A stretch of 64,000 bases of DNA from Candidatus Eremiobacteria bacterium (GCA_963737065.1 CAVTRC010000002.1:64001-128000), one strand, 5' to 3'; shown: positions 24,079 through 42,695, numbered from the stretch's first letter. Numbers and translations are program-made. The notes: generated from the sequence alone by a model not told the origin.

Positions 24079-24680
24079 ACCTCCTCTACGCCTTTGCGCG
24101 TTCTTCGATCCGGCTGTACAGCGAATTGGTTTGGAATGCGAAAGGGCTCGGCACCGAAAGCGTCCCCCGGACCGGTCCGTTGATCATCGCCTGCAATCAC
24201 ATCTCGCTGCTCGATCCGCCGGTCATGGGCAGCTTCGTTCCGCGCCCCGTCTGGTACATGGCGAAAAAGGAACTCTTCGAGATTCCCGGACTCGGTCAAC
24301 TGATCCGCGCCGTCGGCGCGTATCCGATCGACCGTGAGGGAAGCGCCGCATCAGCGATTAAGCGCTCCGTCGAGATGTTGCGTGATGGCAAGTGCATTGG
24401 CATTTTCCCGGAAGGCGGACGCAACGCTGAGGGCGACAAGGCGGCCCGCGCGGGCGTTGCGCTCTTGGCCTCGCTCGGCAAGGCGCCCGTCGTCCCGGCG
24501 GCCGTCGTGGGCACGAATTTGAAGAAAAAGCGGAATAACGTCAAGGTCGCATTCGCGAAGCCGCTCGCACTGCCGTCCGACCGGAAAGCAACCCGCGAAG
24601 AATTGGCGAAGTTTACCGACACGGTTATGAGCGCAATTTACGCGCTCGCGAGGGATATTGGTGGAAATTCGCAAGGCTAA
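24075..24680 (+). CDS. plsC: 1-acyl-sn-glycerol-3-phosphate acyltransferase
   Basis: NHISLLDP (HxxxxD), MAKKELF, FPEG. Confidence 0.9.
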   Translation: MNLLYAFARSSIRLYSELVWNAKGLGTESVPRTGPLIIACNHISLLDPPVMGSFVPRPVWYMAKKELFEIPGLGQLIRAVGAYPIDREGSAASAIKRSVEMLRDGKCIGIFPEGGRNAEGDKAARAGVALLASLGKAPVVPAAVVGTNLKKKRNNVKVAFAKPLALPSDRKATREELAKFTDTVMSAIYALARDIGGNSQG

Positions 24681-25503
24681 AGTTCAAGGTTTCTGCTTCG
24701 GCGTCGCGATCACGGTGAAGAAAGCCGAAGAGGCGATCGAATCGCGTAGCGACGTGACGACACTCGGCCATGTCGTGCACAACCCGCAAATGGTGCAATC
24801 GCTCGAACAGCGCGGCCTCCGCAATGCGCACTCGGTTGACGAAGTGGACGGCGGTGCGCTCTTCGTTCGCGCGCACGGGTTGCCGGTGGATGTCTTTGAG
24901 AAAGCCTCGCAAAAGGGCCTCGAAGTCATCGATGCGACCTGCCCGATGGTCACGAAGATTCACGTGCAGGCCGAACGCCTAAAAGCCGACGGCTATAAAA
25001 TCATCGTGGTCGGCGACCCGAAACATCCGGAAGTCAAAGGAACGCTGAGCCATGTTCCGGGCGCGTGGTGCATTGAAACGGTGGAAGATATCGAAAAACT
25101 TCCGCGCAGCAGCAGAGTCGGTGTCGTCGTCCAGTCGACGTATTCGCGCGAACGCTTCAGCGAGATCGTGAAAGCGCTTTCGGAAAAGTATTATGAAGTG
25201 CGCGCGGTCAACACGATCTGCACCGACACGAACAATCGCCAAACCGAAGCGCTGAGACTCGCCGGTGAAGTTGAGGTCATGGTCGTGGTCGGCGGCAAAA
25301 CTTCCGCAAACACCAAGCATCTCGCCGAACTTGCCGAGACGCACGGTGCGCATTCGTATCACATCGAAGGGCCGGACGAGCTGCGTGCAGAGTGGTTCGA
25401 CGGCATAACCGTCGCCGGACTGATGTCCGGCGCCTCGACACCGGGTTGGCTCGTCGATCGAGTTGAGCAGCGAATGGAGGAGCTCACCCGTCAGCCGGTT
25501 TAG
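24658..25503 (+). CDS. ispH: 4-hydroxy-3-methylbut-2-enyl diphosphate reductase
   Basis: GFCFGV, VHN, RAHG, DATCP, HPEV, NTIC, SANT, GASTP. Confidence 0.95.
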   Translation: MVEIRKAKVQGFCFGVAITVKKAEEAIESRSDVTTLGHVVHNPQMVQSLEQRGLRNAHSVDEVDGGALFVRAHGLPVDVFEKASQKGLEVIDATCPMVTKIHVQAERLKADGYKIIVVGDPKHPEVKGTLSHVPGAWCIETVEDIEKLPRSSRVGVVVQSTYSRERFSEIVKALSEKYYEVRAVNTICTDTNNRQTEALRLAGEVEVMVVVGGKTSANTKHLAELAETHGAHSYHIEGPDELRAEWFDGITVAGLMSGASTPGWLVDRVEQRMEELTRQPV

Positions 25504-37650: not shown

Positions 37651-38792
37651 TCACCGTGAATGCCGAGTTGGGTGTCTACGTGCACCTTCCGTTTTGTCCG
37701 TATATTTGTCCGTACTGTGACTTTGCGAAGTGGCCGATGCGCCGAAGCATCGCATCGCAGTATCTCGAAGCGCTGTACAGCGAAATCGAGGAGCAGCCGA
37801 TCGAAGCGGCAGCGACGCTCTTTCTCGGCGGCGGCACGCCGAACGCGTATCGTGCCGATGAGATCGCGGCATTGCTTGCACGCCTTCGTGCGATCTACGA
37901 CGTCCAAAGCAGCGTGTCGGAAACGACGATCGAAGTGAATCCGGAGCTCATTGCACCCGGCGATTTCGAGCACTACGCCGCAGCCGGAGTCTCGCGCCTG
38001 TCGATCGGCGTCCAATCGTTCGACGCTGCGGAGATCGAGACGCTCGGAAGAAAGCATACGTCCGGACAGATTCGTGCAGCCGTCGAAGGCGCGCGTTCTG
38101 CGGCTATTGCGTCGGTTTCACTCGATCTCATCTTCGCCGTTCCCGGCCAAACGGTCACATCGTGGGATCGCTCGTTGCGCGCGGCGATCGACCTCGGCGT
38201 CGATCACGTCTCGACATACGGACTCACGATTGAGGAAGGGACGCCCTACGAACGGTGGTACGAGCGCCAGCCATCCGCATTTTTCGATGATGCACGCGAA
38301 GCGGATCTCTACGACCGCGCGATCGATGTGCTCGAGCGCGCCGGATACGAACACTACGAGATCAGCAGCTTTGCGAAACCCGGGCATCGCAGTGCGCACA
38401 ACGGCAACTATTGGCGTAACGGCGAATACGCCGGGCTCGGCGTCGGCGCCGCGTCATATCGCAACGGCGAACGATGGGTAAACACGCGCGATCTCAAGGT
38501 CTATCTCGATGCGGCGCTGGCGCGAACGCCGATTCCCGCGCAAAGCGAGCGTCTTCCGGCACATAAAGCGTGCGGAGAAGGACTGATGCTTGCTCTGCGA
38601 ACGGCGCAAGGGGTGGGACTGTGCGAGTTCAAGAAGCGGTACGGCGTTGACGTCGAGGAGCATTACGCTCCGGTAATCGCCCGCTATGGCGACGCGGGAT
38701 TGCTGGAAATCGAAGAAGGCCGAATGCGGTTGACGCGACGCGGAAAATTTCTTGCTAACGACGTGTGCGGAGCCTTTGTAACATTCGAGTAG
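37647..38792 (+). CDS. hemW: Radical SAM heme chaperone HemW
   Basis: YVHLPFCPYICPYCDF, GGGTP, SIGVQSF, HYEISSF, HNGNYW. Confidence 0.92.
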   Translation: MITVNAELGVYVHLPFCPYICPYCDFAKWPMRRSIASQYLEALYSEIEEQPIEAAATLFLGGGTPNAYRADEIAALLARLRAIYDVQSSVSETTIEVNPELIAPGDFEHYAAAGVSRLSIGVQSFDAAEIETLGRKHTSGQIRAAVEGARSAAIASVSLDLIFAVPGQTVTSWDRSLRAAIDLGVDHVSTYGLTIEEGTPYERWYERQPSAFFDDAREADLYDRAIDVLERAGYEHYEISSFAKPGHRSAHNGNYWRNGEYAGLGVGAASYRNGERWVNTRDLKVYLDAALARTPIPAQSERLPAHKACGEGLMLALRTAQGVGLCEFKKRYGVDVEEHYAPVIARYGDAGLLEIEEGRMRLTRRGKFLANDVCGAFVTFE

Positions 38793-39889
38793 CGGGCAAC
38801 AACCTTTCCGGCGCGATTTTGCGAACGATGTTTATCGTCGTGTTCGCAGTGACGGGCTTTTTGCTCGGCCGCGAAGCGTACTTAGGCATCCTCTCGCTTC
38901 ACGTCGCGAATGAAGCGCTTCAGATCGCGCTCTCGATTGGTTCGTCGGTGGCCGGTGCGCTTGTCGGCGTGCTGGTGGCGCCATTCGCGCAGAGCTTCTT
39001 CGAAGACGAGCTCATCGTCGCCGAAGGCGCAATCGAACGCCTGTCCCCAGCCGAAGTCGCCGGGGGCGCGATCGGCCTCATCGCGGGGCTCGGCATTTCA
39101 CTGCTCGTGAAGAACATTGCATTCGAGTTCGTAAACTTCGCAGGACGCTCGGGCCATTATCTTGCGATCGTGTTGTACTTGATCGTTGCGGCTTTTTGCG
39201 CCTATCTCGGCGCGCGTGTCGGCGCGAAAATCGGAATGCGGCCGCTCGGCGATCGCGCCGATACGGCGCCCGCTAAAATCGTAGATACGTCCGTGATCAT
39301 CGATGGCCGCATCCTGGAGATCGTCGAGAGCGGATTTTTGGAAGGGACCCTCGTCGTACCGCGTTTCGTGTTGCGCGAACTGCAGACGATTGCCGATTCC
39401 GTCGATCCGCTCAAGCGCACGCGCGGGCGGCGCGGTCTCGAAGTGTTGAGCCGTTTGCAAGAACTGCGCGCGTTAGACATCAGCGAGCGCGATTACAGCG
39501 ATCTGCCGCCCGGAAACGTCGACGCGAAGCTCGTTCGCCTCGCACGCGAGACGAGCGGTAAATTATTGACCAACGATTACAATCTCAATCGTGTCGCAAG
39601 CGTCGAGCGGGTCGACGTGTTGAATATCAACGAACTTTCGAATGCGGTGAAGCCGGTCGTTCTTCCGGGCGAAGAGATGAACGTTCACGTGATTCGCGAG
39701 GGAAAAGAACCGAATCAAGGCGTTGCATATCTCGACGACGGGACGATGATCGTCGTCGAACAAGGGCGCCGACTCATCGGCGAAGAGACCGACGTCGTCG
39801 TCACGAGCGTGTTGCAAACCGTCGCCGGCCGCATGATTTTTGCGCGACCAAAGCCAGGGCCCGTCCACTCAGCGCCGCATGGTACGTAG
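38765..39889 (+). CDS. PIN/TRAM domain membrane protein (YacL-like); start uncertain
   Basis: Four TM segments, DTSVIIDGRI, RGRRGL, TNDYNLN, GVAYLDDGTMIVVE, GRMIFA. Confidence 0.92.
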   Translation: MRSLCNIRVAGNNLSGAILRTMFIVVFAVTGFLLGREAYLGILSLHVANEALQIALSIGSSVAGALVGVLVAPFAQSFFEDELIVAEGAIERLSPAEVAGGAIGLIAGLGISLLVKNIAFEFVNFAGRSGHYLAIVLYLIVAAFCAYLGARVGAKIGMRPLGDRADTAPAKIVDTSVIIDGRILEIVESGFLEGTLVVPRFVLRELQTIADSVDPLKRTRGRRGLEVLSRLQELRALDISERDYSDLPPGNVDAKLVRLARETSGKLLTNDYNLNRVASVERVDVLNINELSNAVKPVVLPGEEMNVHVIREGKEPNQGVAYLDDGTMIVVEQGRRLIGEETDVVVTSVLQTVAGRMIFARPKPGPVHSAPHGT

Positions 39890-40032
39890 ATGGATTCCTT
39901 GCTCGCCTGCACCGCGCTGCTCACCGGGCACGCATCTGAGGCTTCGCGCACTCTTCCCGCCTTGCGAGGGCGAGGAATGAACGGAATCCGGTGCCATGCA
40001 ACGACCGGCGAACGCCCACATCGGACGGTTCG

Positions 40033-40986
40033 ATGAATTGGGGAGCGATTGTCGTCGCCGCTGGACGCGGTACTCGCTTCGGTGGCCCGAAGCAGTTCGT
40101 CGAGATCGGCGGGCTGCCGATGATCGGCTGGTCGATCCGAACGTTCGCCGCGATGCCCGAGATCGGCGAACTGGTCCTCGTCACCGAGGACGAATGGCTT
40201 GAGCCGATGCGCTCGCTCGCATCGCAACTCGCGCCGGCGCATACACCGGCGATGGTTGAAGGCGGTCCGTCGCGTCACGCGAGCGTACGCAACGGTTTGC
40301 ATGCGTTGTCCGATCGTTGCGGCGGAGTGCTCGTGCATGATGGTGCGCGTCCGCTGGTTCGTGCCGAAGACGTCCGCAAGGGGATGCGCGAAGTACGTGC
40401 CGGGCGTGCAGCGGTGCTCGCCGCGCCGGTCGTCGACACGATCAAGATTGTCGATCCGGCGACAATGCTCGTTCGAAAGACGCTCGATCGCGGTGAGCTG
40501 TGGGCGGCGCAAACGCCCCAATTCTCTATGCGACGTGAGCTTCAGCGCGCGCACATCGAGGCGCAGCGTGCCGGGACCGAAGCGACGGACGACGTGACGC
40601 TGCTCGAAGCAATCGGCATTGAGGTAATGGCCGTTGCGTCGTCGGCCGAGAATTTCAAAGTGACGCATCCGCCGGACGTTGCGCGTGCCGAGACGCTCTT
40701 GCGCGAGCGGCTCGACCACGCGCCCGAAGAAGACGAGGTGTTACTCATCGAAGTCTTTGCAGACGACGCGCTCGTCGAGGCGATCGAGCGTGAGTTGGAA
40801 TCGCGCGGCGCAACGATCGACGCTATCGATCGCGACCTCCCGCGCGGTGCGATCGTCCGCGCCTACGTGTCGTCGAACGCCTTGCGCGGATTCGGTTCGC
40901 GATTCGAAGCGTTTGGCGACGGTACGGCGACGTTCACGACGCGCTTTTCGCATTACGGGGGCCGCGGCGAAGGAGTCCGTGCGTGA
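40033..40986 (+). CDS. ispD: 2-C-methyl-D-erythritol 4-phosphate cytidylyltransferase with an extra C-terminal EF-G domain V-like module
   Basis: AAGRGTRFG..KQF, HDGARP, QTPQ, TDD, NFKVT; about 80 extra residues ending GTATFTTRFSHY. Confidence 0.93.
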   Translation: MNWGAIVVAAGRGTRFGGPKQFVEIGGLPMIGWSIRTFAAMPEIGELVLVTEDEWLEPMRSLASQLAPAHTPAMVEGGPSRHASVRNGLHALSDRCGGVLVHDGARPLVRAEDVRKGMREVRAGRAAVLAAPVVDTIKIVDPATMLVRKTLDRGELWAAQTPQFSMRRELQRAHIEAQRAGTEATDDVTLLEAIGIEVMAVASSAENFKVTHPPDVARAETLLRERLDHAPEEDEVLLIEVFADDALVEAIERELESRGATIDAIDRDLPRGAIVRAYVSSNALRGFGSRFEAFGDGTATFTTRFSHYGGRGEGVRA

Positions 40987-41468
40987 CGAGGGTCGGACAC
41001 GGTTTTGACGCGCACCGCTTCAGCCCCCGACGGCGCCTCGTGCTCGGCGGAGTTGAAGTTCCCCACGATAGCGGACTGCTTGGCCATTCGGATGCCGACG
41101 TCGTCGCCCATGCGGTCTCCGACGCACTTCTCGGCGCTGCCGCTCTCGGCGATCTCGGCGGCCATTTTCCCGACACCGACCCGAAATGGAAGGACGCCGA
41201 CTCGATGGTGCTGCTCGAGGCGTGCATGCAATCCGTCCGCGATGCCGGATACGCCGTTTCGAACGTCGATGCGACGATCGTCGTCGATCGTCCGAAGCTC
41301 GCGCCCTATATCGGAGCGATGCGCGAAAACCTCGCGACGCGTCTCCAATTGCCGCTCGAACGCATTAGCATCAAAGCGAAGACGAGCGAAGGAATGGGGT
41401 ATACGGGAGACGGCACCGGGGTCGCGGCGTATGCGGTCGCCGCTATAGAGAAGAGGGAGCGCGCCTAA
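40983..41468 (+). CDS. ispF: 2-C-methyl-D-erythritol 2,4-cyclodiphosphate synthase
   Basis: GFDAH, GHSDADV..HA..DA, GDLG.HFPD, KAKTSEG. Confidence 0.96.
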   Translation: MTRVGHGFDAHRFSPRRRLVLGGVEVPHDSGLLGHSDADVVAHAVSDALLGAAALGDLGGHFPDTDPKWKDADSMVLLEACMQSVRDAGYAVSNVDATIVVDRPKLAPYIGAMRENLATRLQLPLERISIKAKTSEGMGYTGDGTGVAAYAVAAIEKRERA

Positions 41469-42019
41469 TGGACGTTTCTCGGGCGCAGTTGATGACGGCG
41501 ATGCAGCGATGGCGTTTTCTCGGAGATTCGCCACCGGATGCAGCGATTCGCTGGATCGACTCGTTCTTAGAGGCGTACGGTGAACGGCTGGCCGGCGTCG
41601 ACGACGCCTATCCGTTCGTCGCTGCGCTGCGAGCGGAGGCGTGTGTGATCCCGGCCCTCGAACTGGAACGGCTCCGTACGCGCAACGTACTGTTCTTTCT
41701 CGATTCCGTAGGCCAGTATATCGACGATCAGCCGGAACTGCGCGCTTTGCCGCTTTCTCAAGACATTCCGGCGATTGCGGCAGAATTCGGCATATCGAAA
41801 GAGGACGCGTTTTATGCCGTACGCATGGCGCTTACGGGAGCCAAAGATGGACCGCCGCTCGAACTGCTTTTTCCGCTGCTGGGCCACGACCGCATGCTCA
41901 TGCGTATCGGGGCGGTGAATTCGCGCTTGCTGCACGGACGTGGCCTCGAACCGATCAAATATGGCCCGGATGGGAAGCCGTTCGAACCGATTCGCTCGAA
42001 GGCGCCCGATGACGTCTGA
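41468..42019 (+). CDS. Stand-alone GluRS anticodon-binding-domain-like protein
   Basis: AVRMALTGAKDGPPLELLFPLLGHDRMLMRI matches the GluRS/class I LysRS C-terminus; no HIGH or KMSKS; RBS GAGGGAG. Confidence 0.7.
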   Translation: MDVSRAQLMTAMQRWRFLGDSPPDAAIRWIDSFLEAYGERLAGVDDAYPFVAALRAEACVIPALELERLRTRNVLFFLDSVGQYIDDQPELRALPLSQDIPAIAAEFGISKEDAFYAVRMALTGAKDGPPLELLFPLLGHDRMLMRIGAVNSRLLHGRGLEPIKYGPDGKPFEPIRSKAPDDV

Positions 42020-42695
42020 TCTGCTCGACACGCTTCGTCGCGATCTGAATGCGCCGCTCGAGCGCGATCCCGCAGTCCGTGGTTCACTGGACGTTATTTT
42101 GTCGTATCCCGGGTTTCATGCGATCGTTGCGTATCGACTGTTTCACACGCTGCATCGCGCCGGCATTCCGCTGTTGCCGCGCTGGCTTTCGCACGTCACG
42201 CGCTTTTTCACCGGGATCGAAATTCATCCAGGAGCGACGATCGGCGAAAACGTCTTCATCGATCACGGCATGGGTGTCGTCATCGGTGAGACCGCCGAAG
42301 TGGGCGAGGGGTGCACGATTTACCAAGGCGTGACGCTCGGCGGCACGAGCTTGAAGCGCACGAAGCGCCACCCGACGCTTGGCCAAAATGTCACGGTCGG
42401 GGCAAACGCATGCGTTATCGGCGCGATTTTTATCGGTGACAATGCGCGCGTCGGCAGCGGCTCCGTCGTCGTGCGCGACGTTCCGGCCAATGCGACGGTT
42501 GTCGGTATTCCCGCACACGTGGTCGCGATGGACGGAAAACCGGTGCGCGCCGTGCCTGACCGTCCGCAAGTCGAAATGCCCGATCCGAATGAAACGGCGA
42601 TCAAGGAACTGAACCGCCGTATCGTACAGCTGGAAGATCGCATCGACACCATCGAAGGTAAGGAAGGCGAAGAGCACTGGTCGTGGGTGATTTAA
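42009..42695 (+). CDS. cysE: Serine O-acetyltransferase
   Basis: RDPA, YPGFHA, TGIEIHPGA, FIDHGMGVVIGET, KRHPT. Confidence 0.96.
   Translation: MTSDLLDTLRRDLNAPLERDPAVRGSLDVILSYPGFHAIVAYRLFHTLHRAGIPLLPRWLSHVTRFFTGIEIHPGATIGENVFIDHGMGVVIGETAEVGEGCTIYQGVTLGGTSLKRTKRHPTLGQNVTVGANACVIGAIFIGDNARVGSGSVVVRDVPANATVVGIPAHVVAMDGKPVRAVPDRPQVEMPDPNETAIKELNRRIVQLEDRIDTIEGKEGEEHWSWVI

Follow-up and report, generated by a model that had tools for sequence, protein, structure and literature searches.

The ispD gene and the domain added at its end

A stretch of 64,000 nucleotides from a Candidatus Eremiobacteria bacterium (GCA_963737065.1, CAVTRC010000002.1:64001-128000; genome G000), referred to here as the window, carries on its plus strand an ispD gene whose product ends in a homolog of domain V of the translation factor EF-G. 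The genes lie in the order PIN-TRAM protein, ispD with the added domain, ispF, a 183-aa anticodon-binding-domain open reading frame (ORF), cysE and cysS. A search for RNA or DNA sequencing runs brought up none. The ispD coding sequence (40033..40986, +) specifies 317 aa from an ATG at 40033 to the stop TGA at 40984-40986. An in-frame GTG upstream, at 39991, gives an alternative 331-aa ORF (39991..40986, +); judging by the sequences, the ATG at 40033 is probably the true start, because orthologs are mostly 317 aa long and have the N-terminus M(I/N)WGA. The catalytic (cytidylyltransferase) domain (40045..40704, +; PF01128, ORF residues 19-238, E 1.7e-56) is followed by a flexible, acidic linker (40714..40731, +; residues 228-233 of the 317-aa protein), for which the predicted local distance difference test (pLDDT) in the AlphaFold2 (AF2) model is below 50, and then by the EF-G domain V-like (EFG_C) module (40732..40968, +), which comprises about 80 residues arranged as beta-alpha-beta-beta-alpha-beta and ends in ...ATFTTRFSHY. 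The C-terminal end (40969..40983, +), the last five residues ...EGVRA, is short and probably disordered; residues 308-317 have pLDDT below 50, and their length and sequence vary among orthologs. The residues that an earlier note, made from the sequence alone, had quoted from behind the end of IspD are present exactly in the 39991..40986 ORF, the C-terminal part of which reads EVLLIEV...TRFSHY, then GGRGEGVRA, then the stop.

The fused protein is, to judge by sequence, the working IspD (CTP:MEP cytidylyltransferase) of this organism in the pathway of 2-C-methyl-D-erythritol 4-phosphate (henceforth MEP), because it passes the cut-off of the ispD equivalog-domain model of NCBIfam (TIGR00453, 203.4 bits against 181.3), because no second strong PF01128 match is found in the genome, which makes the fused gene the sole bona fide ispD, and because the rest of the pathway is present (IspE, IspF, IspG, IspH and Dxr). 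The PF01128 score, 191.9 bits, likewise passes its cut-off of 27. The full-length AF2 model, built on an alignment of 31 sequences, has a pLDDT of 82.5 and a predicted template modelling score (pTM) of 0.67, and superposes on the solved IspDs 1vpa_B (Z 28.9, root mean square deviation (rmsd) 1.9, 216 residues) and 5ddt_A (Z 28.2); a fold search with the whole model returned IspD-type matches only, and the tail was then modelled alone. The protein thus resembles monofunctional IspD (TIGR00453, PF01128; 1vpa, 5ddt) in the cut-off passed, in fold scores of Z 27-29, in having ispF directly downstream and in its company of MEP genes, but differs from it in the extra C-terminal domain of ~80-85 residues, which none of the solved IspDs matched possesses. 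A weak PF01128 match elsewhere in the genome (G000:C1:930347-930658, 33.5 bits, profile positions 12-118) lies in a 324-aa open frame directly downstream of ispE (C1:929448-930209); it is probably another nucleotidyltransferase and not a second IspD. IspH is encoded ~15 kb upstream of ispD, at 24667-25479 (+) of the window (G000:C2:88667-89479; Pfam LYTB, E 7.4e-87).

The module sits exactly at the junction of ispD with ispF (40983..41468, +; Pfam YgbB, E 1.7e-65), a separate gene for 2-C-methyl-D-erythritol 2,4-cyclodiphosphate (MEcPP) synthase with a GTG start, which overlaps the ispD stop by 4 nt. In this respect it recalls the bifunctional IspDF enzymes (NF006899; 1w55/1w57 of Campylobacter jejuni), in which IspD is likewise extended at its C terminus by a further domain, where ispD meets ispF. 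The added domain is, however, not IspF: the NF006899 model, whose cut-off is 417, gives 143.9 bits and aligns with nothing beyond its IspD half. The earlier note had already set this fusion apart from the familiar one with IspF, and the separate ispF ORF agrees with it.

Relation of the tail to domain V of EF-G

The relationship of the tail to EF-G appears first in sequence profiles. In the whole ORF, Pfam registers EFG_C (PF00679) behind IspD at residues 252-322, with 28.1 bits, narrowly above the gathering score of 27.9; on the tail alone (window 40714-40983) the score is 32.0 bits (E 1.3e-7, profile positions 8-78 of 89), and a PF00679 scan of the genome picks up the same tail at 30.8 bits, along with four true translational GTPases of the EF-G family encoded elsewhere. 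NCBIfam EF-G models match the tail weakly and via their C-terminal ~70 positions only. No GTP_EFTU, EFG_II, EFG_III or EFG_IV match was obtained in the Pfam scan of the ORF, and on its domain content the protein is not a member of the EF-G-family GTPases. When a tail profile built from nine tails (A1) was run against all PDB sequences, EF-G domain V came top (6not_A, E 8.1e-7; 4fn5_A, E 3.7e-6), with alignments to chain residues ~619-695 of the PDB EF-Gs, and BipA, mitochondrial RRF2 and TetQ appeared at E>0.2 only. Profile-profile comparison by hhalign of 44 tails with 59 EF-G domain V sequences gave a probability of 99.3% and an E of 4.9e-20 over 79 columns (columns 7-85 of the 90-aa tail); the EF-G set was assembled from tail-profile hits and the genome's four copies and is biased to tail-like sequences, but it consists of bona fide EFG_IV+EFG_C proteins. 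Identity of the tail to domain V of the EF-Gs of its own genome and of relatives is 24-30%, and HMMER aligns 77 tail columns to 76 EF-G residues, in agreement with the one extra residue that the earlier note had counted by eye. Against Pfam, the tail showed no ACT, DUF1949 or other regulatory-domain profile at E<=1; of the two families that had been proposed for comparison, EFG_C was matched and DUF1949 was not.

A second, independent line of evidence is the predicted structure. In the full-length AF2 model the tail forms a beta-alpha-beta-beta-alpha-beta block, with pLDDT 88-92 for residues 241-280, and modelled alone it has a pLDDT of 73; the ferredoxin fold that had been suggested from the sequence is thus reproduced. 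The third line is the search for similar folds. Among the 50 PDB matches listed by Foldseek for the tail-only model (E 5.5e-5 to 7.5e-4; TM-score for the query, TMq, 0.60-0.74), 49 are EF-G, eEF2 or Snu114 chains or complexes with them, and one is BipA. A second search of the same model, independent of Foldseek and scored by Z, placed domain V of five factors on top at Z 10.7-11.6, namely EF-G2 (2dy1_A, Z 11.6, rmsd 5.0, 86 aligned), BipA (4zck_A, Z 11.5, rmsd 3.2, 83 aligned), EF-G (4wpo_BZ, Z 11.2, rmsd 4.3, 85 aligned), Bacteroides thetaiotaomicron EF-G2 and LepA (3cb4_D, Z 10.7, rmsd 2.5, 80 aligned); TetM follows (3j9y_w, Z 9.2, rmsd 2.6, 82 aligned). Most generic ferredoxin folds, including PII-like, CutA and ACT-type domains, S6, the HisG C-terminal domain (4yb5, 2vd3) and DAHP synthase 1vr6, lie lower, at Z 7-9, a range where similarity may reflect a common arrangement only. 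Within this range, the fold also matches residues 132-206 of 1vi7_A (Z 8.4, rmsd 2.5, 73 aligned), which we take to be YigZ. Like the tail, the C-terminal domain of YigZ/IMPACT (DUF1949) is an EF-G domain V-like ferredoxin fold outside a translational GTPase; it differs in the missing profile match, in a Z lower than that of true domain V and in its N-terminal partner.

Since the profile-profile match and the Foldseek matches place the similarity well beyond chance, the tail is truly homologous to EF-G domain V, though diverged. The fusion of IspD to an EF-G domain V-like module, which was the central claim of the earlier note, is hence upheld by both kinds of match to EFG_C, in profile and in structure; the roles that the note suggested for it, as an ACT-like regulatory or an RNA/ribosome-contacting module, are conjectural.

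Distribution, gain and loss

Forty-one relatives were searched. PF01128 passed its cut-off in every one of them, and 40 yielded a complete ispD locus (G014 gave partial or weak matches only). Ten loci (G000-G005, G018, G021, G022, G024) have an extension of 82-100 residues past the catalytic domain, and the ORF of ispD and tail is uninterrupted in all ten; 29 loci have <=10 residues there, and G034 has 30. The close orthologs, from which the earlier note had allowed that the tail might be absent, do carry it, in five of six same-genus genomes. In a quick maximum-likelihood tree of 40 rows, inferred from the IspD catalytic domain and IspF with the tail columns excluded and standing in as a gene tree for the species tree, all carriers fall in one 18-row clade (Shimodaira-Hasegawa-like approximate likelihood ratio test, SH-aLRT, 97).

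In a phylum-wide sample of 301 genomes, the module is present in 62 of the 207 members of family f1 and in none of 94 from 20 other families. Scores against the tail profile separate these 62 carriers (77-171 bits) from EF-G proper (36.5-40 bits). Genomes flagged as unpublished are included in the counts (the carriers G223, G255, G247, G271, G253 and G192, the non-carrier G243 and, in the 40-genome set, the tail-less G036), and without them the phylum tally is 56/294. Family f1 is the family of Eremiobacterota (Vulcanimicrobiota) labelled Baltobacteraceae by the sources, the carriers, uncultured soil bacteria, making up part of it. A scan of a species-level genome collection with two peptide patterns, which divergent forms can escape, gave 20 confirmed loci, all titled Vulcanimicrobiota, Eremiobacter*, Baltobacteraceae, Aquilonibacter, 'bacterium' or 'uncultured bacterium'. 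One TGA was noted within the matched stretch in G024, G274 and G289 during the phylum scan.

Beyond the phylum, a HMMER search of 1.84e9 protein representatives gave 81 matches at E<=1e-3, of which 30 were scanned with Pfam and seven sequences were read. Ten matches reach E<=1e-10; these are either IspD fusions or fragments cut off by contig ends, two of which start inside the module, and the strong matches with residues ahead of the module all start with the C-terminal motif of IspD. The remaining Pfam-scanned matches are EF-G pieces, apart from P0050, a piece of an IspD, and P0049 and P0057, which are false positives of low complexity. Neither a stand-alone module nor a fusion partner besides IspD was found among the 30 scanned of these 81 matches, and a search of the ESM Atlas minus the translational-GTPase families gave EF-G fragment clusters only (score 0.91-0.92) and no other enzyme family. 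The most tail-like EF-G, P0048 (cluster-mate P0119), is 34% identical to the tail of the window and 33-39% identical to most others (tblastn), and P0119 is only 46% identical to the genome's own EF-G. EF-Gs of Eremiobacterota exceed PDB EF-Gs of other phyla (17-32 bits) in score against the tail profile. These comparisons are suggestive of a donor EF-G within the lineage, though they are confounded by composition.

The position of the module raises the possibility that the tail is a docking adaptor for IspF (or IspE), which would make the carriers a non-covalent equivalent of bifunctional IspDF assemblies. It sits where IspD and IspF join in IspDF, a recognised fusion in the accessible text of one survey (PMC10663253), the 4-nt overlap is consistent with coupled translation, and the AF2 model aligns to C. 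jejuni IspDF 1w57_A via its IspD half (Z 23.1). However, in every one of the 40 relatives ispF directly follows ispD, the two either overlapping at start and stop or lying up to 98 nt apart, and non-carriers show an equally tight junction without the module. Co-variation was followed in the 18-genome clade (10 carriers and 8 non-carriers; 240 IspD and 161 IspF columns), and among the 161 IspF columns there is none that carriers keep invariant and non-carriers have altered. Furthermore, for the monofunctional enzymes of Bacillus subtilis and Escherichia coli, no IspD/E/F complex was detectable according to the accessible text of one report (PMC5821942). A complex prediction of the tail with the IspF trimer gave scores of 0.00 and 0.00, for a set-up of three copies plus a partner that is outside the calibration of the tool, and speaks neither for nor against docking. 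Docking to IspF or IspE appears quite unlikely.

The upstream neighbour of ispD (38765..39889, +) encodes a protein with PIN (E 1.1e-8) and TRAM (E 1.2e-4) domains and a long hydrophobic N-terminal region; the same gene stands upstream of ispD in G051, the one other genome inspected for it. In genus g29, to which ~650-700-aa open frames had drawn attention, an IspD-tail-IspF triple fusion was considered and rejected for G051, where ispF is separate and where the 676-aa frame (L073 864-2768, +) is an out-of-frame overlap with PIN-TRAM running stop-free into ispD at high GC. Such stop-free frames of 630-700 aa cross gene boundaries, so that 'open frame' lengths overstate gene size in this high-GC lineage. 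Downstream of ispF, a stand-alone 183-aa ORF (41468..42019, +) matches in Pfam only the anticodon-binding domain of the glutamyl-tRNA synthetase (GluRS) type (Anticodon_2, E 2.5e-8), and a full gltX lies on the other contig (G000:C1:1840443-1841855). Whether or not IspD has the tail, this ORF is conserved beside ispF in family f1 (21 of 24 loci); in families f2 and f3 it stands there in none of 16 loci. It may be a domesticated remnant of a gltX located 3' of ispF, an arrangement that is presumably the Bacillus-type operon order. The longest cysE ORF (41940-42695, +), with a GTG at 41940, overlaps the preceding ORF by 80 nt, and the real cysE start is therefore probably further downstream.

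Residues, constraint and the possible role of the module

For the comparison of 44 tails with 59 EF-G sequences, tail positions are numbered from window 40714 as position 1. Common to both are E13, V14, L28, R31, A50, G59, G70, A72, T73, T75, F78 and H80, which from the alignment look like core and turn positions. The EF-G-conserved positions changed in the tail include P8->E, P17->D, G22->D, R32/G33->G/A, F58->R, L64->F, R65->E, S66->A and R71->T, so that the EF-G surface motif LRS..QGR has become FEA..dGT and both conserved prolines (P8, P17) are replaced. The tail has near-invariant residues of its own, F15, D36, R40, D41, L42, P43, R63 and R77, and an invariant hairpin motif, D..xRDLP. A divergent subgroup of carriers (...LLVECFVD...R(D/E)LP...) has the same IspD-tail architecture. 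The module therefore shares with domain V of EF-G, EF-G2, LepA, BipA, TetM, eEF2 and Snu114 its sequence, fold, core and turn residues and C-terminal F-S-H-Y, and is unlike all of these in being a tail on a metabolic enzyme without a G domain or domains II-IV, in the loss of the prolines and LRS..QGR and in the new D..xRDLP.

These replacements bear on whether the tail still recognises the L11/helix 43-44 region or other RNA, by which it would tether IspD to ribosomes or sense them. In EF-G, domain V packs on the G domain and touches 23S rRNA at H89 and at the L11-binding region, as stated in accessible passages of PMC5207388; the tail is a true homolog of this domain and is closer to canonical EF-G than to BipA, LepA or TetQ. 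In E. coli EF-G, Leu641 and Gln644 contact A1067/A1096 in helices 43/44 in a structure by cryo-electron microscopy (cryo-EM), according to the accessible part of PMC4517844. By alignment to E. coli fusA, these residues correspond to tail 35 (Ile/Val) and tail 38 (Val/Ile), which remain hydrophobic, and this conservative replacement means that loss of the rRNA contact is not proven. The replacement of surface residues nevertheless leans against ribosome contact. In EF-G, moreover, domain V works as one of five domains, the other four of which are absent here, and the module is confined to part of one family, where it was lost more than once. It is also acidic (net charge -8, pI 4.6); net charge was dropped as a test of RNA binding because it does not discriminate, the LepA-like domain V of the genome being at -7. 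Binding of the tail to the ribosome or to other RNA is thus very unlikely. Least likely of all is its specific form, in which the tail would bind the GTPase-associated centre (L11/helix 43-44) and tether or gate IspD, coupling isoprenoid-precursor synthesis to the translational state; if true, this would be a metabolic enzyme with a translocase domain as its ribosome sensor.

Substitution rates indicate that the tail is kept under purifying selection. Within the genus, the tail has nonsynonymous substitution values (dN, Nei-Gojobori) of 0.02-0.11 and the catalytic domain of 0.06-0.17; between genera the two are alike (0.29-0.49 and 0.25-0.44). This constraint has to be set against the view that the tail is a passenger or stabilising domain that folds by itself, has no particular partner and is either harmless or a help to solubility or folding. 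The dN of the tail equals or falls below that of the catalytic domain, folding alone hardly explains the invariant D36, R40, D41, P43, R63 and R77, and the module persists in both the typical and the divergent carrier subgroups. On the other hand, it is joined via a flexible linker of low confidence, it was lost cleanly at least twice while neither IspD nor IspF shows a visible compensating change, and its last strand is cut off in some lineages. A passenger domain seems rather unlikely on this balance.

In the reading we favour, a copy of EF-G domain V entered the junction between ispD and ispF in the ancestor of some members of a single Eremiobacterota family, without the other EF-G domains, and purifying selection has retained it. 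The module has kept the domain V residues of core and turns, swapped a conserved surface stretch and gained an invariant surface motif of its own. Whereas architecture, homology, fold, distribution and constraint are established here, its departure from translation is our inference, drawn from the replaced surface, the absent partner domains and the narrow distribution with repeated loss. Instead, IspD would have co-opted it as a cis-acting accessory of ferredoxin fold, which through oligomerisation or allosteric (ACT-like) regulation would modulate the third step of the MEP pathway. Metabolic enzymes that bear a regulatory domain of ferredoxin fold stand among the weaker fold matches as a precedent: ACT, PII-like and ferredoxin-like domains (HisG C-terminal, the FL domain of DAH7PS) have the same beta-alpha-beta-beta-alpha-beta arrangement on a biosynthetic enzyme at Z 7-9, but they have no sequence-profile relationship to the tail, and the likeness is an analogy of role, not demonstrated homology. 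By this analogy, a cis-acting oligomerisation or allosteric module on IspD is put forward tentatively.

Several observations weigh against this proposal, in addition to the bias of the EF-G set, the lack of a regulatory-domain profile and the hydrophobic positions 35 and 38 described above. First, the module is missing from 30 of 40 relatives and is thus dispensable. It is cleanly absent even from the same-genus G006, where ispD ends seven residues past the catalytic domain, and on the gene tree its presence requires three state changes, e.g., one gain and two clean losses. Second, in G024 and P0034-P0037 the tail stops early, in ...TARASAR or ...TVRPT/A, and the final FSHY is gone (the G024 tail is L008 1495-1737, -); such tails may represent decay or a shorter functional form. 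Third, synonymous substitution (dS) is ~1 or more, near saturation, which makes dN/dS ratios rough. Fourth, only two of 240 IspD columns (ORF residues 18 and 182) are invariant in the 10 carriers and changed in at least five of the eight non-carriers; residue 182 (Arg) is changed in all eight, yet is less than 90% conserved in the 31-sequence carrier alignment.

IspD-EFG_C is an unusual domain combination and apparently undescribed. No publication on this architecture was found in a search outside subscription journals, and in the accessible text of a survey of the bacterial MEP pathway IspDF is the only IspD fusion mentioned (PMC10663253). Source names for the carrier proteins are plain IspD, which leaves the extra domain invisible in automated annotation, and pre-computed Pfam strings already register the IspD + EFG_C pair. 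To our knowledge, EF-G domain V is found almost only in translational GTPases and a spliceosomal relative, and we know of no regulatory domain on IspD in any other bacterium and of no cultured model for this phylum. The fusion is a third IspD architecture, beside the monofunctional enzyme and IspDF, and it offers a clear case from nature of a repurposed ribosome-factor domain, which here belongs permanently to a core metabolic enzyme, is under selection and has a remodelled surface. Should the module turn out to regulate or organise the early part of the MEP pathway, isoprenoid synthesis would gain a new control point.

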